This document shows, in pieces, positions 17,565 through 30,607 of a DNA stretch of 64,000 nucleotides. Source of the stretch: a phage. A program made the position numbers and the translations under genes. Below the pieces are notes generated by a model, which saw only the letters and a program-made list of their open reading frames with translations, was not told where the DNA came from and did no database searches. Each line of letters starts with the position of its first letter. The first letter of the stretch is position 1. The stretch lies in the sequence record OZ346187.1. One strand, 5' to 3'.

Positions 17565-18010
17565 AACAGGTATAGCTCCTTATGAAAGTGATCTTTTAAT
17601 TTCTCACTGAGAAACTTCTTGATACCTTCCTCTAAAGTGTTTTCGATGTAGTCCAGCTTAACTGCTTCGATGGACATATCATAGATCGCCAGCTCTAAGC
17701 TGTCAAGTCCCATCATAGCATGAACCATAAGATTTTCATCTTCAGATACATTCAGGGGACTTCCTATAACATCTGGAGGCAGAATAGTTTCCCAATTATT
17801 CTGGGTGGTAGTTCTCCCTCCCTCTGCTTTACGGCGCAGTTCGAATGTGTTCTTAGTATAAAACACTTCATAAGAAACGATACGACTGTCGCTCTCATAA
17901 TAAACGAAGTTCAGGTAGGAGCCTAGCCGCAGTCGGCAAACTTCCACCCCAAACCATTGTTTCTTATAAGAATTCAGGCTAATGCTGTCGCATTCACGTT
18001 TGCTCAACAC
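17561..18010 (-). CDS. hypothetical protein (149 aa)
   Basis: ORF in minus block. Confidence 0.45.
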   Translation of the reverse strand: MLSKRECDSISLNSYKKQWFGVEVCRLRLGSYLNFVYYESDSRIVSYEVFYTKNTFELRRKAEGGRTTTQNNWETILPPDVIGSPLNVSEDENLMVHAMMGLDSLELAIYDMSIEAVKLDYIENTLEEGIKKFLSEKLKDHFHKELYLL

Positions 18011-18026
18011 GGCTATCTCCTTTTTG

Positions 18027-18260
18027 TTAATCTTCGTAAATCAGGATTTCTGCTTTAGGTTTTCGTGCTTTCAGGTCCAGCTCTATCCAGTGCACCATAG
18101 CTGTTTCAAGAAAAACAGCTTGGATGCATCCGTCCTCAGCGTGCCCCACCAACATAACGAGATCTTCACCTTCGTCATCTGCATCACGAACATAAAGAAT
18201 CTCTCCAGATTCGAAGTCTTTCACAACCTGATTGCTAGATAATTTTCGAATTTTTGCCAT
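18027..18260 (-). CDS. small acidic protein (77 aa)
   Basis: ORF; acidic small-protein style like those in 50-61 kb. Confidence 0.4.
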   Translation of the reverse strand: MAKIRKLSSNQVVKDFESGEILYVRDADDEGEDLVMLVGHAEDGCIQAVFLETAMVHWIELDLKARKPKAEILIYED

Positions 18261-18261
18261 A

Positions 18262-18525
18262 TCAGAAACCCTCTAAAAAGCTCTTGTAGAAAACAATCTC
18301 AGTATCCACACCAGTCACAATCTTGTCGTTCCTGATTTCATCGGTAAGATAGGTGTCAAAACGCAGAACCTGTGTGGTGTTGTCACACATCCACTCAGCT
18401 GTGACCATTGCGAAAATCTTAGCATCTTCATTATCTGGTGTGAATGTTACCACCTCACCGCACTTAAACTTTTCGATAGGCTGAGTGTTAGCTTTCGGTT
18501 CTGCGATAGTGATTTTTGTGGTCAT
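18262..18525 (-). CDS. small protein (87 aa)
   Basis: ORF in minus block. Confidence 0.4.
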   Translation of the reverse strand: MTTKITIAEPKANTQPIEKFKCGEVVTFTPDNEDAKIFAMVTAEWMCDNTTQVLRFDTYLTDEIRNDKIVTGVDTEIVFYKSFLEGF

Positions 18526-18791
18526 TATTCTTCCTCCATAGTTTCACCAAATACTTCGATACGAGCATCGAGCTCGGTTGCTTTCAGCTCCCCAACAAAA
18601 TATTTTAGTTCTTTCTCGTCCAGATCGTAAGCCCACACACAAGAAGAACATGCAGATTTCACAATCAGCAGCGTAGATACACGACCTGACTCTGTGATCA
18701 TGCTCACAATGGTTCCCACAGGGAACGTGTTGATAGCTTTTTTAACTGGGCGTTCAGCTTTAATTACTACCTCTGTTGCCATAAATAACAT
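18525..18791 (-). CDS. small acidic protein (88 aa)
   Basis: ORF in minus block. Confidence 0.4.
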   Translation of the reverse strand: MLFMATEVVIKAERPVKKAINTFPVGTIVSMITESGRVSTLLIVKSACSSCVWAYDLDEKELKYFVGELKATELDARIEVFGETMEEE

Positions 18792-18797
18792 CCTCTC

Positions 18798-20258
18798 TTA
18801 CTTAGCGTACTCGATTAATTCCACAGTTTTACCAAAGCTAGGGATATAATTTTTATTATACCCTTCGGTTAGAACCCATAAAGTATCGTACTTTTTCCAC
18901 TTGTTGTCAACAGCCTTTTGTTCAAAGTTATGCTCAAAGTATAGGTCGGTCAGGACGATGACATCTTTTGCATTTGGTATGTTGGCATCCAGATACTCGA
19001 ACACGCAAGCAGCTGTTGTTCCCCATGTTGAGTGGACCTCATAGTTGATCATTTCGTCTATGTTGCCGCGAGTGTATACTTTAACCTCTCCAACCTCAGT
19101 TGACCAACAGAACATTGTAACCTTAAATTCTTTATACAGATTGCACAATCCGGTGATTTCATTGAACATTTTCTTTAAAGTTCTTTGAGAGATCGAGCCA
19201 GAAACGTCTAAAGCCACCACAATATCTATAGTGTTTTCCGGATTACGACCAGGAACAATAACGTGCTGGTTCTTGTTTATAGCTCCGACTTTTCGCATTG
19301 TGCTGGTCAAAGACCCAGATCGGCGACCAGGTTTTCTGTAGGTCAGTTCGGCCTTTCTTTTAGACAACATACGCTGCTTGATGATGTCTATATAATTGAT
19401 TACAGGCTTACCTCTATTCTTGACAAACTCACGAACCGCCTCAGGGCAACGACCTCCGGAAGCTTGCATTGCTGCCTCAAGCATGTCACCAGAGTCCTGC
19501 ATGGCCTGATCTTTATCAGATTGGCTGATTACTGGTTGCGGCTGATCATACCCCATAGCCTTTCCAAGATCATCACTAGTACCACCGTTCCCACTCATGT
19601 GATCATCGGTTTGTCGTTTATCTCCTTGGGAGTTCTCGCCTTTACCGTTCTTACTTTTACCGCTATTCTTATCTCTTTGTTTATCAAGAACTGCATAGAC
19701 GTTCTCAGCAATCCATTCATGAAACTTCATGTCGCAGTAGCAACTAGCTAAGAAGCCAAAAGGCTTACCTTTTACGAACTCAGTGCTTTTCCCCTTCGGG
19801 AAGAAAACACAAGGAGGCTTGCTAAAGTCAACCACAAGACCTGTGTTGATAACGTGATCACAAGCAATATTGAACAGTTCCGGCTCAAAGCTTTTACCAC
19901 GGACCAGATGATCACAGATAATGTGCCCCACCTCATGTGACAGAAGAAAGGCCACCTCTTTCACAGATTTTGGGGAATAGAAAACCTCAGCCATCTCAAA
20001 CTGCTTGTCAGTCAGAGATGATTTAAGAATGGTTTTACGCTCATCTGCCAACCCCATAATGAACTCAGGGCTGTAGTAGATGCGTTTATGGTCTGTTGCC
20101 ATAGTGGAGCACCATGTGTGGTTTTCTACGAACTGCAACCCTGACAACAGTGTGCCATAAAACGGCAGCTTTTCAAGAAGGTACATGCGAGCGGCCTGCA
20201 GCATTCGCAAGGCATCATCTTTTTGTGCGGTAATGATTTCTGAACTTCTGCTATCCAT
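18798..20258 (-). CDS. VWA-domain protein with N-terminal HExxH metallopeptidase-like motif (486 aa)
   Basis: HEVGHIICDH (HExxH) near the N-terminus; VVALDVSGS MIDAS-like DxSxS motif in the C-terminal half; likely start is ATG at 20258 after GGAG (track TTG at 20279). Confidence 0.7.
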   Translation of the reverse strand: MDSRSSEIITAQKDDALRMLQAARMYLLEKLPFYGTLLSGLQFVENHTWCSTMATDHKRIYYSPEFIMGLADERKTILKSSLTDKQFEMAEVFYSPKSVKEVAFLLSHEVGHIICDHLVRGKSFEPELFNIACDHVINTGLVVDFSKPPCVFFPKGKSTEFVKGKPFGFLASCYCDMKFHEWIAENVYAVLDKQRDKNSGKSKNGKGENSQGDKRQTDDHMSGNGGTSDDLGKAMGYDQPQPVISQSDKDQAMQDSGDMLEAAMQASGGRCPEAVREFVKNRGKPVINYIDIIKQRMLSKRKAELTYRKPGRRSGSLTSTMRKVGAINKNQHVIVPGRNPENTIDIVVALDVSGSISQRTLKKMFNEITGLCNLYKEFKVTMFCWSTEVGEVKVYTRGNIDEMINYEVHSTWGTTAACVFEYLDANIPNAKDVIVLTDLYFEHNFEQKAVDNKWKKYDTLWVLTEGYNKNYIPSFGKTVELIEYAK

Positions 20259-20267
20259 TAAAACTCC

Positions 20268-20290
20268 AGAAGGGGCCAATGGCCCCTGTC
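20268..20290 (-). terminator. GC hairpin between co-directional genes
   Basis: ggggcc-aat-ggcccc palindrome between stop of 20292-21341 and the 18798-20258 start region. Confidence 0.35.
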
Positions 20291-20291
20291 A

Positions 20292-21341
20292 TTATTTAAC
20301 GTGCTTGAAAATACCAGCCAACTCGGTCATTGTCATGCGAGTGGTCTTCATAAGGTCTGTCATAGCCTTTTCCATGATTGGAGATACTACCATGAAGTTA
20401 CCTTTGGTGAAACCTTTGTTCCAGTCGGTAACTAATAGTGGTTTAAGTCCGGCCCCGAGACGCTCACCAGTTAAAGCACAACATTTTCGAATGTATGTGC
20501 TCTTAAACTGGCTGAAGGACAGATCAACTTTCATACCTGCATCGTAGAACGTCTGGCAATAGAAAGTGTAAGCTTTGGCAATCTCAACATCGTCAGGCAG
20601 TGCAGGAACCTCTTCTGTAAGCTCTTCTTCGACCCCTTGAGGCTCTTTTTCCTCTTCGTAAGCCTGTTGCGTCATCTCTTCAATCTCCTCTACTACAGGC
20701 TCGTTTACAATGTCAGAAATGTGCTTGTTGGCTCCACGATTAGCCATGAAGTTTTTAAAATCCTGCATTGGTGACATATCTTCTTCCTCTTCGTCAAAAA
20801 GTGCTAGTTTATCTTCTTCTGTCCCATATTGCAAGATGAAATCTTCAAAAGTATAATCACCTTTCAATTTCTCCATACGCTCTTCGCTCAGGTGAAGCAT
20901 CATCTGCTGGACAATTTTTCGATCAGTTTTGTCTTTTATCAATATTGCAGTCTTTTTATCTACCAGACAGTCTTTCAGAGCGTTGCACCTCAACCCTACC
21001 ACACAACAATTGTCAATTGCGTAAGGACCTTCATCATCTATCCGCTCCAGAGATGGGTAGAAAGGATTCCCCAGCCCGTTTTCATCTGTGTGCATGTCAA
21101 AAGGTATAAGGGTATAGTCGCATACTCCATCTCCTAAAAGTTTTTTACCAAATAGGAGGTATTCTTCCCATGACAGGTCGAACTCTATATCTCGTTTCCG
21201 TGCGTTATTCTGTTTGCGTCTATATTTTTTGAGCAAGCGCTCTAACTCTTCTGGTGTATAATATTTTTCAAGATTCATGAGTCGTCTCTCGTGCTCTGTA
21301 AGTGAAGAAATCGTATCAATTGTCTCAACAGATGTCAACAT
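20292..21341 (-). CDS. HNH-type endonuclease-like protein with two tandem HNH-like segments (349 aa)
   Basis: DIEFDLSWEEY...CDYT...PSLERIDDEGPYAIDNCCVV..CNALK resembles phage HNH nucleases of the IDRID..GY..N..CN..K type; a second degenerate copy lies C-terminally; start ATG at 21341. Confidence 0.5.
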   Translation of the reverse strand: MLTSVETIDTISSLTEHERRLMNLEKYYTPEELERLLKKYRRKQNNARKRDIEFDLSWEEYLLFGKKLLGDGVCDYTLIPFDMHTDENGLGNPFYPSLERIDDEGPYAIDNCCVVGLRCNALKDCLVDKKTAILIKDKTDRKIVQQMMLHLSEERMEKLKGDYTFEDFILQYGTEEDKLALFDEEEEDMSPMQDFKNFMANRGANKHISDIVNEPVVEEIEEMTQQAYEEEKEPQGVEEELTEEVPALPDDVEIAKAYTFYCQTFYDAGMKVDLSFSQFKSTYIRKCCALTGERLGAGLKPLLVTDWNKGFTKGNFMVVSPIMEKAMTDLMKTTRMTMTELAGIFKHVK

Positions 21342-21351
21342 CAAAAACGTG

Positions 21352-21380
21352 TTGACTTTACTCTAACTCTACAATATAGT
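21352..21380 (+). promoter_or_regulatory. sigma70-like promoter (TTGACT-17-TATAGT)
   Basis: -35 at 21352-21357, 17-nt spacer, -10 at 21375-21380, in the divergent intergenic region upstream of 21421. Confidence 0.45.
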
Positions 21381-21420
21381 GCACCCATTCGAAAGAAAAC
21401 TAACATAGGAGCACTTACTT

Positions 21421-22320
21421 ATGGCAAATCTTAACAGTTTTAGTACGCGGTGGAAACAGGACATAACAACCAATCTTTCAGCTGGGGACATCCTTTCTGC
21501 AATTTACGAGGCTTTAGATGATAAAGCTACTTCAAAAGCGGTTTGTACCAACCCGCTAATTCCTGTAGTGATGAAGGTTATTGAGCGTAGATTGGTATCT
21601 GGGTCTGATAAGTGGACATATTTAGATAATGAAGGACACACCTATTCCAATGGGTACGTCGATATAAAAGTAGAATACGCGGTATCATACCGCCGGAGCG
21701 GTTCTGTAACTTTCAACTTCTCTGGAGGTTTTCGATCTCTGGCTACCTCACCTTTTGTTTCCTCAGAGGAGAAGTATGAGCTGCCATTTCTTTGGATGAT
21801 GGCTAACGCGACAGGAAAAACCCCCGTTAGCATCCGAGTAAAATACAACTACAACGGATCTAGTAAGATCTATGCCGAAAGTGTCTCAGCAAGTTTTTAT
21901 TTTGTGATGGGAGATGGAATCCTCAAACATATAAAGATGTGCGATATGCATGATGTTATAAATGAAGTGACTGATAAGAATGTTCTAGTGAAAGACCTCA
22001 ACAATTTTTATACACCCGGAGACTATTACGTCAGCCGTCCACTGTGCATCTTTAATGCCGCACACCCTCTAGGTGAGTATTTGATCGCCAATAGCGATAT
22101 TGCCAATAACCGATTCGAGGTAGCAAGAGTTCAGAATGAGGTATTGACATCTTGCAAGAGTGGTGATAAGTTTACCGAAGAAGAGATGAGTGTTTTAGAA
22201 ATGATGGGATATAAGTGTAGCCTTTGGGTAGATGAGGTGTTTAATGATTGCATCTATGGACAGGATATTTACCCATTAAAGAAGTATACTGATACAAGTT
22301 TAATTTATGCGAGGGTTTGA
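21421..22320 (+). CDS. hypothetical early protein (299 aa)
   Basis: AGGAG RBS; first gene after the divergent promoter. Confidence 0.55.
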   Translation: MANLNSFSTRWKQDITTNLSAGDILSAIYEALDDKATSKAVCTNPLIPVVMKVIERRLVSGSDKWTYLDNEGHTYSNGYVDIKVEYAVSYRRSGSVTFNFSGGFRSLATSPFVSSEEKYELPFLWMMANATGKTPVSIRVKYNYNGSSKIYAESVSASFYFVMGDGILKHIKMCDMHDVINEVTDKNVLVKDLNNFYTPGDYYVSRPLCIFNAAHPLGEYLIANSDIANNRFEVARVQNEVLTSCKSGDKFTEEEMSVLEMMGYKCSLWVDEVFNDCIYGQDIYPLKKYTDTSLIYARV

Positions 22321-22325
22321 CTACG

Positions 22326-22595
22326 ATGAAGTCGTGTGGTAATGTATATTACGTCGGTGAACATGTTCAGGCAGACAGTGTGTGGAAATCTATTAAGTCC
22401 ACCACTGACGATGCCTTTCTGAGTGGACTATGTTTCCCCAATCCGGGAGACATCCTCCCTCATCCTGGAGATTTTGTTGTCAACAAGATGGACGGTTATA
22501 CCGTGTGCCTGATGGTTGAAAAAATCTTTTTAGACACTAGACACAATCACCGTCTTGTGTTAAAATTTCAAGAATGTAAAATGACAATTGCCTAA
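22326..22595 (+). CDS. hypothetical protein (89 aa)
   Basis: In-frame ATG at 22326 (track TTG 22317). Confidence 0.4.
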   Translation: MKSCGNVYYVGEHVQADSVWKSIKSTTDDAFLSGLCFPNPGDILPHPGDFVVNKMDGYTVCLMVEKIFLDTRHNHRLVLKFQECKMTIA

Positions 22596-22608
22596 GGAGA
22601 CCTTACCG

Positions 22609-22965
22609 ATGTCTAAAGTTACTTATCGTGCAGCTATTTACTGCAATGAACACCCAATTAACAATGATGGTCACTGCCTTTTTAAAGAAAATCAGTTGGG
22701 ATGTATTGTCCTCCCTGATGAAGGGAAAGGTTATCTGATTGCATTGACAGGGTTTGAACCTGAAGCTCTGGAAGCCAATCTGGACTACCTGGTAGAAGAG
22801 GGTGCTGCAGACCTGGTTGCCAATGGCTTCTCCATAAGCCTTGACGAAGTGGAGCGCTTCATGGGCAATTACCGTGTAGTGCGTGAGTTTACTATCGAGG
22901 TGGAAACTCCAGAGTGGGGTAGCCATGAAACTAATGCCGAAGAAAAAGAAGAGGAGGTAGAATAA
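22609..22965 (+). CDS. hypothetical acidic protein (118 aa)
   Basis: ATG at 22609 preceded by AAGGAGA (track TTG 22588). Confidence 0.45.
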   Translation: MSKVTYRAAIYCNEHPINNDGHCLFKENQLGCIVLPDEGKGYLIALTGFEPEALEANLDYLVEEGAADLVANGFSISLDEVERFMGNYRVVREFTIEVETPEWGSHETNAEEKEEEVE

Positions 22966-23222
22966 TGAAAGTGCAGATCTTGACTAATGCCGAGAAGATG
23001 TTTATTGAAGATACACCTTTTGAAGCTGGTGAGCTCCAGTTCATTTATTTTGTTGACTTAGATAAGGTGTTCCCTGCACTGAATCTTGGTCTGGATGAAG
23101 TTCCTCATAAGGTTTTGTGCCAAGTTGTTCGTGCATTAGCGGCAGATGGGGAGTTCCACACCCTTGAAGATGTCCAGACCTACGGGTATCTTGAACTACA
23201 ACGAGAAGAAGAGGTGGACTGA
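22965..23222 (+). CDS. hypothetical protein (85 aa)
   Basis: GAGGAGG RBS, ATG overlapping upstream stop. Confidence 0.45.
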   Translation: MKVQILTNAEKMFIEDTPFEAGELQFIYFVDLDKVFPALNLGLDEVPHKVLCQVVRALAADGEFHTLEDVQTYGYLELQREEEVD

Positions 23223-23224
23223 TA

Positions 23225-23605
23225 ATGGCCCGGTGGAAGACAACAGTTGACCTTCATGATCAGTGGTTAGGACGCATCACTGAAGACGGGAAGCTAGTGG
23301 AGTGGGACAATAAGCATGTTAGCGAGTTGGCAAGTATTGTGGCTGGCAAGTTACGCTCCAAGTTCCCTGAACAACTGGATCCTGATAGTTCAAAGTTCGA
23401 TCCTGAGTTGGAGGATGTTGTATACTACTTCGACACCGTTGATGACTACGACGCGTGGTTTGCAGCACGGGAGCTTTACCCACAAGGCTCTGCTATGCGT
23501 CAGATGGAAGAAGATTATCCTCCGTGTGAGCAATTCAATAGTGCAATGACTTGCCTCTATGATTGGGCAGATAAGAACCTTGTCTGGATTCGGACTGCAT
23601 TTTAG
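23225..23605 (+). CDS. hypothetical protein (126 aa)
   Basis: ORF with RBS. Confidence 0.45.
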   Translation: MARWKTTVDLHDQWLGRITEDGKLVEWDNKHVSELASIVAGKLRSKFPEQLDPDSSKFDPELEDVVYYFDTVDDYDAWFAARELYPQGSAMRQMEEDYPPCEQFNSAMTCLYDWADKNLVWIRTAF

Positions 23606-23649
23606 TGGGCAGGAATGGCGGCAAGGATGCTGCTTAAGGAGTAGTAGAG

Positions 23650-23919
23650 ATGTTATACCAGCAATATGAACTTCGTGCAGAAAAAGAGTTAAATTTTGAC
23701 AAAGATATTCACAGATATTATTATGGGAAAGTTAGAGGGCAAGCAAGAAAGTGTACTCCAACACTCTTTTATGCCAGCAGACGACTAGCGCCAGAAGAGG
23801 CAACAGCAGAAAGGGTTGCGTACAACTGGAGAGTCACGTATGATATTGACAGATCCGATGTGATATCTGTTTTGGAAAACTTTGAAAACACTTACACACA
23901 AGTAGAGGACTTTTACTAA
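23650..23919 (+). CDS. hypothetical protein (89 aa)
   Basis: AAGGAG RBS. Confidence 0.45.
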   Translation: MLYQQYELRAEKELNFDKDIHRYYYGKVRGQARKCTPTLFYASRRLAPEEATAERVAYNWRVTYDIDRSDVISVLENFENTYTQVEDFY

Positions 23920-25103
23920 TGTCAAGAAACGTATTCGAAAGTGGTCAAATCACTGTCCGTGAGTTGCCAGCTATTATTCAGTTTGCCCAACGTCATAGCC
24001 GATCTGTCCTAGTTTTGGGACCAATGGGTGTGGGTAAAAGCCAGGTGATGAAGCAGATCGCTGATAATATGTTCGGTGAGCGAGATGACAACCTTGTTGA
24101 CGTGCGACTGTCAGATAAAGATCCTGCCGACTTATCTGGGCTACCTATCCCTGTAGAGGCGGATGGAACTACACGTACAGTGTTTGCAATTCCAGAATTT
24201 TGGCCTGCGGATCCTGACTGGAGCGGAATTATCTTTCTGGATGAGCTCACTCATGCAGATAACTACCTGCAAAAGGTTGCAATGCAAATTATGCTTGACC
24301 ACAAGTGCGGTACCTATGCATTCCCTAAGGGTTCTGTTTTTGTGGCTGCTGGTAACCGTTCTACAGATGGTGCGGTTCTTTCGGCGCTCGAAGCCCCTCT
24401 GGCTAACCGTTTTATCATTGTAGAGGTTACAAGCAATGCAGAGGTGTTTATTGAGGACTACGCATTCCTTAATGGGGTGCACTCCTCTGTAATTGGATAT
24501 CTGAAAAGAGTTCCATCAGCTATCGATAATTATGAGGCCATGGCTGAGATTAATTGTCCATCTTTTGCCACACCGCGATCTTGGGTTGCTGCATCTGATA
24601 TCTTGCACGATTTTGACAGCGGTATTATTTCTGACGCTATGGCCCGTGTTCTTCTGCAAGGTGCTATTGGTCACACTGCAGCGGTAGAGATCTGGACATA
24701 CCACACCAAGAAACGCAATTTACCTGAAATCGGTCGGATTATGGCAGGTGGTTGCAAAGAATACGTAGGTCCTAAGCAGCCAGACATTTTGTGGATTCTT
24801 GGATCTGAAGGTTGTATCGCTATTCGTAATATGATGGAAAATGCAAGTATCTCAGACGAAGATCTTGTCAGCTGCGTGGCAAACTTCCTCGATTTCCTTT
24901 GGGAAAACTTCAAGGACGAGAACCGAGATTTTGTATTCTCAGTCTTTATGGCGATGATGAAACCTAATGCCTTAGGAAATGCCTTGCTTATCGGCAAAGG
25001 GCGTGACAAGATTGTTGCTCAGCTGATCAAAGCATACCCAAACCTGATGAAGATTGTAAAAGAGTTTGGTGAAGAGTTTAGCGCCATTTTGGCTAAAGCT
25101 TAA
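23919..25103 (+). CDS. MoxR/CobS-like AAA+ ATPase (394 aa)
   Basis: Walker A VLVLGPMGVGKSQ, Walker B IIFLDELTHAD, sensor-like FVAAGN and ALANRF, the AAA_5/MoxR arrangement. Confidence 0.75.
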   Translation: MSRNVFESGQITVRELPAIIQFAQRHSRSVLVLGPMGVGKSQVMKQIADNMFGERDDNLVDVRLSDKDPADLSGLPIPVEADGTTRTVFAIPEFWPADPDWSGIIFLDELTHADNYLQKVAMQIMLDHKCGTYAFPKGSVFVAAGNRSTDGAVLSALEAPLANRFIIVEVTSNAEVFIEDYAFLNGVHSSVIGYLKRVPSAIDNYEAMAEINCPSFATPRSWVAASDILHDFDSGIISDAMARVLLQGAIGHTAAVEIWTYHTKKRNLPEIGRIMAGGCKEYVGPKQPDILWILGSEGCIAIRNMMENASISDEDLVSCVANFLDFLWENFKDENRDFVFSVFMAMMKPNALGNALLIGKGRDKIVAQLIKAYPNLMKIVKEFGEEFSAILAKA

Positions 25104-25112
25104 GGGGGTTGT

Positions 25113-25493
25113 ATGGCTAAAGTAGGTAAGCGGGGAAACTACCTGGTGGTATTGACCGAGGAGCCGGAGAAGGAGTACGAATGCAGCTCCACTTGCGTGA
25201 TCGATATCCGAGAAAAAGATGTAGATGAAATCTGGTTTAAAATATTAGACGCTTGCGACAGCAGTGATTATTTCTTCATCTATGTCAACGATAAGGCTGG
25301 ATTCTTCCATGACGACGGAGAGTTGCCGTATGAAATCTATGAACTTGTAGAGGCTTGCCATCGTGGAGATGCGGAGTTGTTTGGCTTACGGCTGAAAAGC
25401 GGTAAATTCTTCTATCAAGATGAGTGCATGAATCTTCATAACTTTGTAGAGGGAACTTGCAACGATGGAGAGATTTTGGCACACTACGATTAA
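25113..25493 (+). CDS. hypothetical protein (126 aa)
   Basis: ORF with RBS. Confidence 0.45.
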   Translation: MAKVGKRGNYLVVLTEEPEKEYECSSTCVIDIREKDVDEIWFKILDACDSSDYFFIYVNDKAGFFHDDGELPYEIYELVEACHRGDAELFGLRLKSGKFFYQDECMNLHNFVEGTCNDGEILAHYD

Positions 25494-25505
25494 TTTCTAA
25501 TACCA

Positions 25506-25530
25506 CCCCGCTTCGGCGGGGATTTTCTAT
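25506..25530 (+). terminator. rho-independent terminator-like hairpin
   Basis: ccccgc-ttcg-gcgggg followed by attttctatt. Confidence 0.55.
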
Positions 25531-25541
25531 TTGGAGTTATT

Positions 25542-26042
25542 GTGAAAATTAAGATCTTTGCTATTATTTTGAGCGCATTTTTATCGCTGCCTGTTGTTGC
25601 AGCACCAAAACAAAAAGTATATCATACTTGCAAGCCCTCAGATACTAAGGAAAACATTTTGGCATGTAATATCTACAGGGAGGCTAGAGGGGATGGCACG
25701 ATGGGTATGCTGGCATCAGGGTTTGCCACACTAAACAGGAAATCTCACCCCAAATACCCAGACACTATAAGAAAGATTGTCTACCAACCTAACCAGTTTT
25801 CGTGGACAAACCACGGCAAAACTTTTAAGGTGACAGAAAAAGATTCATGGGATCACGCTAAAAGTCTTGCAAAGATGCTTCTAAAGGTCTATAATAACAA
25901 CCATGTTGCATACATGGCTATGGACATAACAGGTGGAGCAACACACTACCATACAACCAAAGTACGACCGAAATGGGCAAAAAAGATGCAGAGGACAGCT
26001 CAATTCGGGAGTCATATCTACTACAAGGAGCGCAATAAATGA
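25542..26042 (+). CDS. secreted SleB-type cell-wall hydrolase (166 aa)
   Basis: GTG start after GGAG; N-terminal signal peptide; NIYREARGDG, VYQPNQFSW and ATHYHT motifs match the Hydrolase_2/SleB catalytic domain. Confidence 0.75.
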   Translation: MKIKIFAIILSAFLSLPVVAAPKQKVYHTCKPSDTKENILACNIYREARGDGTMGMLASGFATLNRKSHPKYPDTIRKIVYQPNQFSWTNHGKTFKVTEKDSWDHAKSLAKMLLKVYNNNHVAYMAMDITGGATHYHTTKVRPKWAKKMQRTAQFGSHIYYKERNK

Positions 26043-28021
26043 TTGTAAACAGTAATGAAACTAAAGCAGTACTAACCGGAAATATGGAGGTCACCAGGGG
26101 CTCAATTTCTCTGAACAAAGAGACTTTTGGGCTAATCATTAAAGGGATTTACGAAGATAAGGTGCTGGCAAGCTGCCGTGAACCAATCTTCAATGCTGTG
26201 GACTCCCATGTTGAGTCTGGACGGGGTGATGTACCGATCATCATTCACTCTCCTACAGACCTTGAACCATACTTCTTTGTGCAGGACGTTGGATTGGGCA
26301 TGTCGGAAGAGATGGTCCGCAACACTTTCATGAACCTCGGGGAGTCAACCAAGCGCAACAGCAACGCTCTGGTAGGTAATAAAGGTGTAGGTTCAAAGGC
26401 CCCGTTCAGCATGGTGGACACTTTCGATGTGATCAGTGTGCACAACGGTGTTGAAAGCACATATCTGTTGTTCTTGGATCAGGGTATCCCAAACGTTACC
26501 AAGATCCGCGAGCGAAAGACTGAAGAGCACAACGGGGTAAAAGTTCAGTTCCATGTTAAGAAAGAGCATGTTCTGAAATATCGCACTGCTATTGCGTCAT
26601 GCCTACGCTATGCAAAGTTTCCGTTTACCGTTACCGACCCTATGACCAGTAAGATGCTGGAAGGTGACAAGGTTGAGGCGCAGTATCGCTACGAGAAAGA
26701 TGGTTGGAAAATGACTATCCTGAAAGGTTATACCAGCTCTGATGAGAGCCGTGTGGTGATGGGACACCAACCTTACCGCTCTAAGTTTCTGGAAACATTG
26801 ACAGACTACCCTGCAATCTGTGTAGAGATCCCTATCGGGGATTGCAATATTAACCCTGGGCGCGAATGGACCATAGAGGGGCACGACGATGGTGGATTCC
26901 AGGATCGCCTGGAGGCCTTTGTCAAAGAAGGTATACGTCTTCGTGGGGCAGAAGTTGTTGCGGAATTGGAGACAGCAAAAACATCCTCAGAAGCACGTGA
27001 GATGATGAAGAACAGTGGAGTGTTCGGACACATCTTCGGCAAAAACTTTATGTGGAACCGTTGGGAAGAAACAGGGCTTGGCGACTTAGGCGATTGTGAA
27101 ATTTTCGCTGGCGGCTTAAATAAAGGCCGCATAGGCTATGCTCGTTACGGAAAGTCGGAGTTCTTACGAGGTGTATACCTTGTATTTAACGACGGAGACG
27201 GCAAATATAACCGAAATAAGTGTAACTACTTAAGCGAGATCACCGGACGCAACGTTTTCTATTGCCGTAACACGGATCTGATGGAAGAGTTTAAAGAAGC
27301 GGCACACCACCCGTTCTTTGCAGATACGGTCAAATTGTTATCAGAGCTCCCTCGCCGTCCTGTAAAGAAAGGTGAAACAAAAACTCACTATGAGCCAGGG
27401 TATTGGGTTAAAAAACTTGAGAAAGATGGTTACTTCCGTCGTGAGCGTATTACTAAGGCAGAGTTCAAGAAGATTAAGCACTGCATTCCTTATGAGGGTG
27501 ATATCCAACGTGGAAGTTGTTGGCTGGGACAGCTAAGTAACATCTACCAGCAAAATTATGACCGTGTGCGTGCGGCACTCCAGATTCCTGAAGGGGAAGA
27601 TCTGTACCTGGTATCAGAATCTCGTCTGCTTTGGACTGATCCTGATTGCCAGTATGTTACAGAGAAAAATGTGGAACATTTGTTGAAAGAGGACGCCTGG
27701 AAATTCTTACTGACTCGCGCAGCAAATGAAACTTCATATGACAGCCTGTATAGACAATTAGGGAAAATTATCCCCATGCAAGATTTTGGAAATTATCGGC
27801 CACATTTCCACAAGTGGGAAGGTAACACCGCGTGGAAGCACAGTGAGCTAAATCATCGTGCCAAAATCTTAATCGCCAACCGAGTCAAGTGCGGGAAGGC
27901 CTATATTGCAAGATTGGAAAAGAAATATCCACTTTTGAAGCATGTGGGCTTGAAATATTGGGACACTCCTGCTATGATTGAATACCGTGAACTGATCGAC
28001 GCAAAGAATAACACCAAATAA
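26039..28021 (+). CDS. GHKL (Bergerat-fold) ATPase-like protein (660 aa)
   Basis: N-box-like EPIFNAVD, G1-like QDVGLGMS and G2-like GNKGVGSKA in the first 120 residues; no Toprim EGDSA motif, so not obviously a topoisomerase. Confidence 0.5.
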   Translation: MIVNSNETKAVLTGNMEVTRGSISLNKETFGLIIKGIYEDKVLASCREPIFNAVDSHVESGRGDVPIIIHSPTDLEPYFFVQDVGLGMSEEMVRNTFMNLGESTKRNSNALVGNKGVGSKAPFSMVDTFDVISVHNGVESTYLLFLDQGIPNVTKIRERKTEEHNGVKVQFHVKKEHVLKYRTAIASCLRYAKFPFTVTDPMTSKMLEGDKVEAQYRYEKDGWKMTILKGYTSSDESRVVMGHQPYRSKFLETLTDYPAICVEIPIGDCNINPGREWTIEGHDDGGFQDRLEAFVKEGIRLRGAEVVAELETAKTSSEAREMMKNSGVFGHIFGKNFMWNRWEETGLGDLGDCEIFAGGLNKGRIGYARYGKSEFLRGVYLVFNDGDGKYNRNKCNYLSEITGRNVFYCRNTDLMEEFKEAAHHPFFADTVKLLSELPRRPVKKGETKTHYEPGYWVKKLEKDGYFRRERITKAEFKKIKHCIPYEGDIQRGSCWLGQLSNIYQQNYDRVRAALQIPEGEDLYLVSESRLLWTDPDCQYVTEKNVEHLLKEDAWKFLLTRAANETSYDSLYRQLGKIIPMQDFGNYRPHFHKWEGNTAWKHSELNHRAKILIANRVKCGKAYIARLEKKYPLLKHVGLKYWDTPAMIEYRELIDAKNNTK

Positions 28022-28031
28022 GGAGACAGCT

Positions 28032-29237
28032 ATGATTTTCATCTACGAACATTTCAAAACTCGTAAAGAAGCACGCGACCGCCGTGCAGAACTTGAGAAG
28101 AAGGGTTTCACATGTGCTATTGAGAAAGGTACTACAACATGGACACTGGCAGTAGGTGCCCCAGAGCTGTTTGATCCTGACCGAGACAGTGTCTGCTATA
28201 CCCGTGAGGATTTTGAAACCCGCGAAGAGGCCCGTTTATTCCGCTACGGACTGGAAGACAACGGTAAGTACGCCATGATCTTAGATTCAGGTGAAGGTTC
28301 CGTTAAACGTTGGGGCGTGGTATACCCACTGTGTGTTGTTCACGGTGTGGGGGTCACTGGGGTAGCAATCAAGTCAGAAGAACCTTTAGTAGAAGTCAAA
28401 GATCCGGTGCTGGAAGTGGTGAGCAGTGTGTCTCAGCAACAGTCTCGAAGCATCGAGCCTTTGGTAGTTATTTGCGGGGAACTCCTCCAAATCACCTGCA
28501 ACGAAGGCATTTTTGAAATTCGCCGCAGCGAAAGTGAGGAAGTTTACCAGAAAGTCTTCGACCATATTTCTGTTCAGGAATATGATGAGGCAATTGGTGA
28601 AATCCTTGTCTGGCTGGAACGCAAGAATGAGTTCACCACACTTGCAGACAACCTGATCATGAAAGATGGTAAGCTCTACTACTACGGTGTAGAGATGCGA
28701 TCCACCATTGCAAAGAAAATTGAGGAAGATTATGTAGATGGAACACTGGACGACCGATATGTTAAATTCCTTGTCCGTCTGCTACGCAACCCGTCTGCAA
28801 AATCTGTGAACATGCTCTACGATTTCATGCAGGCTAATGACATCCAGGTTGCAGAAGATGGTCGAATCATTTGCTATAAGGGGGTTCAGTTTAACGGGAG
28901 CAGGTGGGTGGATTGGCACAGCGGTAAAGTTCCACAATACCAGGGTGCTTTTGTGTCCATGCCTCGTAACTTTGTAGAAGATGATCCGGAAGCTGCGTGT
29001 TCTTATGGCCTGCACTGCGCCAGCAAAGAGTATGCAGCGGGCTATGGCACTGTAATGATGGTTATGGTTGACCCTGCGGATGTGGTTAGTGTGCCATACC
29101 AACACAACAGTGCTAAGTGCCGTGCATGCCGCTACGAAATCGTAGCAGCACCGGAATCACGCAAAGATGGCGATCCGATTGAATACGTAGTTGACCGTGA
29201 TGGTAACATCATCGACATTATCTACGAGGAGGCGTAA
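28032..29237 (+). CDS. hypothetical protein with two N-terminal about 40-aa repeats (401 aa)
   Basis: AAGGAGA RBS; tandem N-terminal repeats; no catalytic motif recognised. Confidence 0.5.
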   Translation: MIFIYEHFKTRKEARDRRAELEKKGFTCAIEKGTTTWTLAVGAPELFDPDRDSVCYTREDFETREEARLFRYGLEDNGKYAMILDSGEGSVKRWGVVYPLCVVHGVGVTGVAIKSEEPLVEVKDPVLEVVSSVSQQQSRSIEPLVVICGELLQITCNEGIFEIRRSESEEVYQKVFDHISVQEYDEAIGEILVWLERKNEFTTLADNLIMKDGKLYYYGVEMRSTIAKKIEEDYVDGTLDDRYVKFLVRLLRNPSAKSVNMLYDFMQANDIQVAEDGRIICYKGVQFNGSRWVDWHSGKVPQYQGAFVSMPRNFVEDDPEAACSYGLHCASKEYAAGYGTVMMVMVDPADVVSVPYQHNSAKCRACRYEIVAAPESRKDGDPIEYVVDRDGNIIDIIYEEA

Positions 29238-30607
29238 TGGAAAAAGGGCAGTATGACGTAGGCACAGATGCTGCCCTCATTGCAATCATGAGTGGTGAGA
29301 ATGTCTTCGTTTCAGGACCTGCAGGTTGTGGGAAGACGTATCTCATCAACATGATCCAGTCAATGTATGGAGACTCTTGCATAACGGTTGCCCCGACAGG
29401 GGTAGCCGCTTTAAACGTTAATGGAGCAACAGCACACCGAACATTCGATCTTGCAGCAGGTGTGAGCATGGAGTCGGACTGGACCGCAATAAGGGCAAAA
29501 ACAGCAAAGCCTTTGAAAAGCAAGGCATTTACCATCCTAATTATCGATGAAATCTCTATGATCCGTGCTGATAAGTTTATAGAGATGGATAGGAAACTCC
29601 GCTTCCTTCGAAAAAATGACAAACCTTTCGGAGGCATACAGGTCATATTGTTTGGCGATTTTTACCAGGCACCTCCTGTTGTCTCTTCTATGGAGAAGGA
29701 AGCCTACTTCAACTTCTACCATACGGACCTGTGTTGCTACACCGAATCTTGGAAAGAGCTTGACCTCCACAACATAGCCCTAATAGATCAGTTCCGACAG
29801 GAGTCTATTCGATTTGCCACAATGCTCAACTGTGTTCGTGAGGGTCGTCGCATAAAAGAGGTTGTAGCAGAACTTAATGCTCGCTGTTACAAAGGTGGTG
29901 TACCAACAGATGCTCTCACAATTTGCGCCACCAACAAACAAGCAGAGGAAGTAAACAGAAGGTTCTATGATGCCATCAACGCCCCAGAGAAGGTATACAC
30001 TGGTGAAATGAAGGGTAAGTTTCCCTCCACCCTGCCAGTTGAGCAGGAGATGAAGTTGAAAATTGGCATGAAAGTTATGATAACCGCCAACGATGTTGAC
30101 CCGACGCACAAAGTACCTTATTATGTTAACGGAACACGTGCCACAATTGTTAAATTTAAGAACAAGGCGGTGGTGGTAGAGCTTGAAGATGGAACACAGG
30201 TTGACATAGAGCAGAGGTTGTGGGAGAATAACGAGTATAAGCCCTCTCAGAGATACAACATTGCAGAAAGGAAGATGGAGAAGTTTATAGAGAGGGTAGT
30301 GATTGGGTCATACAAGCAACTTCCTCTGAAATCTGGGTACGCCGTAACATCTCATAAAAGTCAAGGACTTACGCTAGATTGTTACAACCTAGACCTTGGA
30401 AAGAACGGAGCTTTCTCTCCTGGGATGACGTATGTCGCTTTGAGTAGAGTTAAGACAATACAAGGAATAAACTTGTTGCGTCCCCTAAGAGAAGTTGACA
30501 TTATTGTTGACCCGCGAGTAGTAGAGTTTTACAATACAACATTCCCTGACTTAGACAAAATTGTCAGGAAAGATTTTGAAACCAGAGCAGAAGAGGGGGA
30601 CGTATGA
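29237..30607 (+). CDS. Pif1/RecD-family SF1 DNA helicase (456 aa)
   Basis: Motifs I GPAGCGKT, Ia VAPTGVAALN, II IIDEISMI, III LFGDFYQAPPV, V VTSHKSQGLT, VI YVALSRVK. Confidence 0.85.
   Translation: MEKGQYDVGTDAALIAIMSGENVFVSGPAGCGKTYLINMIQSMYGDSCITVAPTGVAALNVNGATAHRTFDLAAGVSMESDWTAIRAKTAKPLKSKAFTILIIDEISMIRADKFIEMDRKLRFLRKNDKPFGGIQVILFGDFYQAPPVVSSMEKEAYFNFYHTDLCCYTESWKELDLHNIALIDQFRQESIRFATMLNCVREGRRIKEVVAELNARCYKGGVPTDALTICATNKQAEEVNRRFYDAINAPEKVYTGEMKGKFPSTLPVEQEMKLKIGMKVMITANDVDPTHKVPYYVNGTRATIVKFKNKAVVVELEDGTQVDIEQRLWENNEYKPSQRYNIAERKMEKFIERVVIGSYKQLPLKSGYAVTSHKSQGLTLDCYNLDLGKNGAFSPGMTYVALSRVKTIQGINLLRPLREVDIIVDPRVVEFYNTTFPDLDKIVRKDFETRAEEGDV

Follow-up and report, generated by a model that had tools for sequence, protein, structure and literature searches.

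In the window, that is, the whole 64,000-nucleotide stretch of phage DNA that was analysed (sequence record OZ346187.1), two open reading frames (ORFs) lie on opposite strands: 18798-20258 (minus), encoding a protein of 486 amino acids (aa) that carries a DUF2201_N region and a VWA-type DUF2201 domain, and 23919-25103 (plus), encoding a 394-aa protein best placed among the MoxR-clade AAA+ ATPases. Both ORFs are present at these coordinates, and the domain and motif matches of both proteins are far beyond chance. An earlier reading made from the letters alone (the sequence-only reading) had described them as a MoxR-VWA pair, divergently transcribed and about 3.7 kb apart; the separation was measured as 3,660 bp, on opposite strands. 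Both proteins are homologous to products of phage N4, the ATPase to gp24 (hhalign probability 99.9, E 4e-35) and the VWA protein to gp25 (probability 100, E 8e-46), and it is as a natural split of this elsewhere adjacent gene pair that the locus is discussed here.

Over 18000-26000, the window shares 96-98% identity with upwards of 100 genomes of Vequintavirus, the rV5-like E. coli myophages. Both genes are already annotated in GenBank for phages of 97% identity: in JeffSchatz, a BASEL phage, the counterparts of the two ORFs are bas55_0054 ('putative metallopeptidase') and bas55_0062 ('ATPase / MoxR ATPase').

The two proteins and their motifs

The most likely start of the minus-strand gene is the ATG at 20258, with GGAG upstream, and a TTG-extended ORF to 20279 is probably not used. 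In Pfam, its product matches DUF2201_N at 9.9e-29 and DUF2201 (VWA-like) at 3.6e-11, both exceeding the gathering scores, and the C-terminal half shows a VWA fold (Rossmann-like alpha/beta). The combination of an HExxH motif with a VWA MIDAS (metal ion-dependent adhesion site), first noticed in the letters, was borne out by these matches and by the motifs read in the translation (Table 1). Across 35 homologues, down to 21% identity, no change is seen at H108, E109, H112, D351, S353, G354, S355, G413, T414, T437 or D438, and H117 is conserved to at least 90%; HE..H and D.SGS are retained in 71 of 71 full-length viral homologues. As read from these residues, the MIDAS (DxSxS...T...D) is complete and intact. 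The linker at residues 201-228 varies widely in length and composition across the homologues and forms a gappy block of the alignment. A direct search of the 486-aa sequence against the PDB gave no match, and the DUF2201 family comprises 32,260 representative clusters at 50% identity (E<=1e-3).

In the homologue P0208 (794 aa), an intein (Hint + LAGLIDADG) is placed directly after HExxH (HEVLH/C...HN/CVYEH). Inteins commonly sit in active-site motifs of important proteins. The idea that P0208 is an ATPase-DUF2201 fusion was rejected, for it has no ATPase similarity and its extra 380 residues are the intein.

The 486-aa protein is often called an HNH endonuclease, both in the label of PHROG 1314 and in the RefSeq names of N4 gp25, LIT1 gp35 and KpS8 gp108. 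Against this name, Pfam and NCBIfam give no HNH family match, DUF2201_N and DUF2201 cover the whole protein, the conserved histidines are those of HExxH, and the C-terminal part has the VWA fold. That is to say, the domain content (DUF2201_N + VWA, with no HNH domain detected) refutes the endonuclease identity, which is almost certainly a mistake of naming. The mislabelling is widespread, being found for window 18798-20258 (minus) as well as for N4 gp25 (L091, 2165-3307), LIT1 gp35 (L088, 6207-7433) and KpS8 gp108 (L093, 7088-8515), and some rV5-like records name the DUF2201_N + VWA protein 'anti-sigma factor'.

The conservation of the plus-strand protein was scored over 45 homologues, in which Walker A, Walker B, the sensor-1 GNR, the arginine of NR164 and that of PR220 are invariant or nearly so. 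Outside the nucleotide-binding and catalytic motifs, the most conserved segment is the helix-2 insert at residues 61-100, where D61, R63, L64, D71, G74, P92 and P96 are invariant. In the AlphaFold model of the protein (predicted local distance difference test, pLDDT, 86), a beta-hairpin occupies residues 75-90 (strands 75-81 and 84-90), and a short pre-sensor-1 hairpin lies at about 129-135. By analogy, the helix-2 insert is predicted to be a pore or partner-contact element.

PHROG 1297 matches the ATPase at 5e-110, and thousands of homologues (about 1e-44, 34% identity, 85% of length) bear AAA_3/AAA_5 signatures, often marked weak. With the family profile, the AAA modules of midasin are the best PDB match (E 2.4e-10); a direct sequence search against the PDB gave P-loop matches only. 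In Foldseek, ranks 1-13 of the model are taken by NorQ and CbbQ2, with template modelling (TM) scores on the target of 0.59-0.67, and other AAA+ proteins reach at most 0.4. Taken from its homologues, the midasin profile match and the NorQ/CbbQ2 match of the model, the 394-aa protein is best described as a divergent MoxR-clade AAA+ ATPase; its nearest relatives are MoxR proteins and not members of an unrelated AAA clade.

Table 1. Coordinates of the two genes, their motifs and the promoter-like matches between them
Feature	Coordinates	Strand	Basis
DUF2201_N (zincin-like) + DUF2201 (VWA) gene, 486 aa, N4 gp25 homologue	18798..20258	-	Pfam, motifs, hhalign
Putative zinc-binding/catalytic motif HEVGHIICDH (H108, E109, H112, H117)	19908..19937	-	translation
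Low-complexity linker, residues 201-228, within N-terminal region	19575..19658	-	pLDDT <50
MIDAS motif DVSGS (D351, S353, G354, S355)	19194..19208	-	translation
MIDAS completion: GT (413-414)	19017..19022	-	translation
MIDAS completion: TD (437-438)	18945..18950	-	translation
MoxR-clade AAA+ ATPase gene (assignment partly from model), 394 aa, N4 gp24 homologue	23919..25103	+	PHROG, homologues, hhalign, model
Walker A GPMGVGKS	24018..24041	+	translation; G37, G39, K40, S41 invariant
Predicted helix-2 insert region, residues 61-100, DVRLSDKDPADLSGLP...	24099..24218	+	conservation, model
Walker B IIFLDE	24228..24245	+	translation; L107, D108, E109 invariant
Sensor-1 region GNR (G145, N146, R147)	24351..24359	+	translation; invariant
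Conserved arginine R164 (NR)	24408..24410	+	invariant
Conserved arginine R220 (PR)	24576..24578	+	invariant
Back-to-back sigma-70-like promoter matches, divergent intergenic region	21310..21380	.	consensus scan, sequence
TTGACA-17-TACGAT with TG	21338-21310	-	consensus match
TTGACT-17-TATAGT	21352-21380	+	consensus match

Adjacency in distant genomes and the split in rV5-like phages

Eighty loci were fetched from IMG/VR through the ATPase family, and both genes were located in them with hidden Markov models. In 76 of the 79 loci with room downstream, the DUF2201 gene follows the ATPase gene directly on the same strand, with a gap of less than 400 bp in 74 loci and one small intervening ORF in the other two. 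Eight contigs stop just past the ATPase gene, and in one locus (L030) an unrelated ORF follows the ATPase gene before the contig ends. Among the 80, one locus alone (L008) is split, and it is rV5-like; an annotated rV5-like record from the same run (L001) is likewise split.

The same order, ATPase then DUF2201, is also that of N4 gp24/gp25, LIT1 gp33/gp35 and CR3_112/113, as well as of a metagenomic phage lineage in which the pair adjoins a 5'-3' exonuclease and a thymidylate synthase. In a curated phage collection of 50,697 records, the ATPase occurs in 747 and the partner in 462, and these records span N4-like podophages, Rak2-like and PA5oct-like jumbo phages, Aeromonas myophages and all Vequintavirinae. 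A 578-kb megaphage-like JGI contig (L005, 3529-6434) has the pair between HSP20/ClpS and ClpP genes, and a 1.25-Mb Paracoccaceae contig (L090) has ATPase then DUF2201, with an ATPase that matches AAA_3/AAA_5 strongly. A single-protein scan of genome contigs gave three Paracoccaceae/Rhizobiaceae loci only and thus says little about cellular settings. The bacterial genome GCA_045600625.1 (L007, 1496-16807) also holds the pair in this order, within a genome island.

That the linkage is kept across very distant genomes speaks strongly for a functional, probably physical, partnership. The proposal that the two genes form a MoxR-VWA pair thus gained the adjacency that the window itself does not offer: that the ATPase and the DUF2201 protein are functional partners is strongly supported, and from the same linkage we infer that they probably also touch.

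Two of these loci deserve a separate remark. The ATPase of the megaphage-like contig has an insertion of about 100 residues right after the helix-2-insert region. The bacterial island further contains an AAA_2 ATPase, a large SNF2/DEAD helicase, an M50-like peptidase, a leucine-rich-repeat protein, a metallophosphatase, a Ser/Thr kinase, a PP2C phosphatase, a second VWA protein and a JAB domain; it looks like a conflict/defence island or a degraded mobile element.

Within the subfamily Vequintavirinae, both arrangements are present. In Certrevirus CR3 the genes are adjacent (CR3_112, CR3_113) on the right arm of the divergent transcription switch, and they are adjacent as well in a 146-kb uncultivated virus genome (L009). 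In the phage of the window (a Vequintavirus), in Seunavirus SSE121 and in Mydovirus KpS8, it is the left arm that carries the DUF2201 gene, two to four genes from the switch and behind an anti-sigma/HNH-like gene; the ATPase gene is on the right arm. Because Certrevirus and the distant genomes have the genes adjacent and the split is confined to Vequintavirus, Seunavirus and Mydovirus, the split is a derived arrangement, namely a single rearrangement in the ancestor of these three genera and not a distinct design. It shows that the adjacent, co-directional order is dispensable.

It might be thought that each protein has become independent after the split and acts alone or with another partner. 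The two genes now belong to separate transcription units 3,660 bp apart, and the arrangement is stable in three genera, which would agree with such an uncoupling. On the other side, every split-lineage genome examined keeps both genes, neither gene is adjoined by a second VWA or AAA partner gene, and the catalytic, MIDAS and pore-loop residues, including the conserved helix-2 insert, are all retained. Because of this joint retention and the intact motifs, uncoupling is considered very improbable.

Genomic context and the proposed mechanism

In the window, the pair has rIIA/rIIB, a helicase gene and an anti-sigma-like gene as neighbours. Elsewhere, genes for dCTP deaminase, thymidylate synthase, helicase and DNA polymerase lie near it in N4 and its relatives, and a 5'-3' exonuclease gene is among its neighbours in other phages. 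The order ATPase ... rIIA - rIIB - DNA helicase at 23919-30607 runs parallel to N4 gp24/25 ... gp33 (rIIA) - gp34 (rIIB) ... gp37 (helicase), which hints at an old early/middle module common to rV5-like myophages and N4-like podophages. It has been reported that N4 gp24/25 are middle transcripts (PMC4193335). The genomic context therefore favours an early to mid-infection role over a purely structural one, and for the phage of the window this timing would be expected from its neighbours.

Both arms in the window start from an intergenic region of 150 bp, where the back-to-back promoter-like matches of Table 1 are found. It is only suggested by these sites that a shared divergent region would keep both genes co-expressed early. 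The gene at 20292-21344 (minus), between the DUF2201 gene and the switch, matches PHROG 3118 ('HNH endonuclease') at 2e-111, has weaker matches to PHROGs of Srd anti-sigma and sigma-70-decoy proteins, and is without a Pfam match. Because its TTG-extended form contains the 21338-21310 promoter match, a shorter start at about 21269, as in JeffSchatz, is more likely.

Some smaller features accompany the two genes. A spacer of 33 bp separates the anti-sigma-like gene from the DUF2201 gene, and in it, just upstream of the GGAG/ATG of the DUF2201 gene, lies a perfect GC-rich hairpin with a 7-bp stem, AGGGGCCAATGGCCCCT (20271-20287), which may act as a terminator/attenuator or on mRNA stability. On the other arm, the stop codon of an 89-aa ORF (23650-23919, plus) overlaps the ATPase start codon by one base in TAATG, which suggests translational coupling of the two. 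PHROG 13164 calls this ORF 'ATPase', which is implausible at such a length; the region's best sigma-70-like match (TTGACA-17-TATTAT, 11/12, 23696-23724) lies inside it, and it has no homologue beside the SSE121 ATPase. The gene at 21421-22320 (plus) is a 'putative alpha 1-3 fucosyltransferase' in many GenBank records; it is without a Pfam match, and its sole PHROG match is 12338 (unknown-function). The tRNA scan of the window found no tRNA; for the pair, NCBIfam gave no meaningful match and the PADLOC defence-system models gave only P-loop-level matches (E>0.004). In addition, 16 records (MG0656xx) named 'Campylobacter phage', with C. jejuni given as host, share about 96% identity with E. coli rV5-like phages across 18000-26000, and their host assignment or purity looks doubtful.

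For the same architecture, a role in virion assembly has been proposed in print, in which the pair would fold and assemble structural proteins and the fused peptidase would trim them. Iyer et al. (2021) described, for the jumbo phages of group 2.2 (Rak2-like), a MoxR-vWA pair with a metallopeptidase fused at the N-terminus and proposed virion assembly and proteolytic processing by analogy to Acidianus two-tailed virus, whose p618/p892 are tail-development chaperones (PMC7824862). In roseophage RPP1, moreover, virion-protein genes lie near the gp24/gp25 homologues in a 'second structural module' (PMC4193335). However, the window, N4, LIT1 and the metagenomic phages place the pair among early/middle genes of replication, nucleotide metabolism and host takeover, the N4 genes are transcribed in the middle phase as said above, and the VWA protein of the Acidianus virus analogy has no peptidase. 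An assembly chaperone is thus held to be unlikely.

We consider it fairly probable instead that the pair, which is the rV5-type version of the N4 gp24/gp25 module, acts as an early/middle ATP-driven remodelling complex with a zinc peptidase. The mechanism is modelled on NorQ/NorD, CbbQ/CbbO, RavA/ViaA and midasin. First, the ATPase would form a presumably hexameric ring, on which the VWA/MIDAS domain would dock and/or with which it would bind the client, so that the VWA protein would serve as an adaptor; the pore-facing helix-2 insert (61-100) of the ATPase would engage the DUF2201 protein. Then, ATP hydrolysis would act through the pore loops of the helix-2 insert to remodel the adaptor or the bound client, and this remodelling would be coupled to cleavage by the fused HExxH zincin-like domain. 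In effect, the two polypeptides would make an ATP-dependent protease/remodeller of early to mid infection, with a phage or host protein as its target. The rearrangement put the VWA/peptidase gene on the other arm of what would be the same divergent early promoter region, and the partnership would be expected to be unchanged. On the side of the DUF2201 protein, a conserved basic segment just N-terminal of the VWA domain (YRKPGRRS, residues 306-313, with R312 nearly invariant) is a speculative candidate for a pore-engaging element.

Another way to read the same domains is that the pair is a metal-insertion or cofactor-maturation chaperone of the NorQ/NorD, CoxD/CoxE or CobS/CobT type, in which HExxH would be a metal-binding or transfer site and the metal would go to a metalloenzyme of phage or host, such as one of nucleotide metabolism. 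NorQ and CbbQ are indeed the nearest solved structures, several homologues bear a weak VWA_CoxE (PF05762) signature, and enzymes of nucleotide metabolism repeatedly adjoin the pair. Yet NCBIfam gives no CobS/CobT/NorQ/NorD-type match for either protein, the pair shows no consistent linkage to any one metalloenzyme gene in the different lineages, and the invariant Glu of HExxH is a hallmark of hydrolytic zincins, which leaves metal insertion quite improbable. The hydrolytic site is supported because this Glu is invariant, because the P0208 intein sits at the motif and because the megaphage copy lies in a ClpS/ClpP/HSP20 cluster.

Several results weigh against the remodelling complex as proposed. 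With regard to the ATPase, the motifs and the nearness to MoxR that the sequence-only reading had seen both stood, and the expected direct Pfam match did not: neither AAA_5 nor AAA_3 exceeds the gathering threshold on the window protein, the best match being AAA_14 at 19.7 bits for a cut-off of 27, and generic AAA matches are all sub-threshold. The Foldseek E-values are about 1e-7 for NorQ/CbbQ, with other AAA+ proteins next at 1e-6. With regard to the partner, the N-terminal domain has no solved zincin fold among the matches listed and only a weak M48 match around HExxH, so its peptidase activity is putative. At about 135 aa, the VWA domain of the DUF2201 protein is minimal, and since a NorD-type 'finger' entering the NorQ pore is not obvious in it, the mode of docking may differ from that of NorD. 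The split itself rules out co-translation or translational coupling of the pair and could reflect functional uncoupling. Promoter-like sites in the region are not enriched (20 against 15 +/- 4.2 in shuffles), and neither promoter nor terminator counts exceed the shuffled expectation, so that single sites are suggestive only. Finally, no experimental results on the pair in any phage were found in the literature, the CRISPRi-ART, PA5oct omics and phage TnSeq papers included, and the earlier statement that no client of the pair is on record still holds.

A narrower form of the remodelling reading is put forward tentatively and may well fail: the module would be a dedicated phage two-polypeptide ATP-dependent metalloprotease, with an AAA+ ring and a VWA-tethered zincin, for one specific conserved target in N4-like, rV5-like, Rak2-like jumbo and many uncultured phages during early to mid infection. 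Its target might be a defence protein, a protein of phage replication or a host factor bound to DNA or RNA polymerase. If this is true, the viral proteases of host takeover or replication licensing would gain a new class, and the active-site intein together with the core-gene status in Schitoviridae would mark the module as near-essential. Few conserved gene pairs of large lytic phages are as widespread as this module, and the rV5-like therapeutic-candidate coliphages that carry it make tractable E. coli systems (BASEL-collection phages, N4) available for finding its function.

Comparison with known systems

Because the module is in the literature (PMC7824862, PMC4193335) and in GenBank annotation, it is less novel than the sequence-only reading had assumed; no new kind of system is added, and little is new here beyond the natural split. 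The resemblance to CobS/CobT, NorQ/NorD and CbbQ/CbbO is at the level of clade and fold only, and Pfam gives no CbbQ_C or CobT match for either protein.

NorQ and CbbQ are the nearest solved structures to the ATPase model, and the VWA partner with a MIDAS, the adaptor-plus-ring logic and the contact through the helix-2 insert are alike. In the cryo-electron microscopy structure of NorQ-NorD, the best template for the mechanism, the concave face of the ring holds the VWA domain, a finger extends to the helix-2 inserts in the pore, and ATP-driven subunit motions twist and stretch the adaptor linker (PMC13036017). The window ATPase is only 16-21% identical to NorQ/CbbQ, a zincin-like domain replaces the N-terminal domains of NorD/CbbO, a pore-inserting VWA finger is not evident, and there is no link to nitric oxide reductase or Rubisco.

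Midasin/Rea1 also has a VWA/MIDAS domain that works with an AAA_5-type ring, and it is the best PDB profile match of the ATPase; it differs in being a single chain of 4,700-4,900 residues with six fused AAA modules, in serving ribosome biogenesis and in having no peptidase. The cellular DUF2201 proteins (COG-type 'predicted metal-dependent peptidase') share the Pfam architecture, with the MoxR ATPase gene first in the Paracoccaceae contig; the cellular ATPases match AAA_3/AAA_5 strongly, but the phage ATPase has diverged too far for such a match.

Among phages, the Rak2-like jumbo phages have the same architecture and family, with tblastn matches in K64-1, PBECO4, CBB, BF and fHe-Yen9-04. The genes are adjacent in jumbo phage BF and split in the window, whose phage is a 137-kb myophage and not a jumbo phage, and the virion-assembly role proposed for the jumbo phages is disfavoured by the context in the window.

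The closest comparison is with N4 and the Schitoviridae. The N4 genes were annotated by Zhao et al. (2009) as a putative AAA ATPase and a vWFA-superfamily protein (PMC2784036), and in the list of Chan et al. (2014) the 14 N4-like core genes include gene 25, with a vWFA domain, and gene 24 (unknown) (PMC4193335). The identity between window and N4 proteins is only about 23-27%, and the window proteins are longer, the ATPase by an extra C-terminal helical region and the peptidase part by a longer linker. In N4 the genes are adjacent and co-directional with a gap of 168 bp, unlike the divergent arms of the window. In both phages, the homologous proteins share the same domains and motifs, and their genes lie in an early/middle region together with rIIA, rIIB and a helicase.

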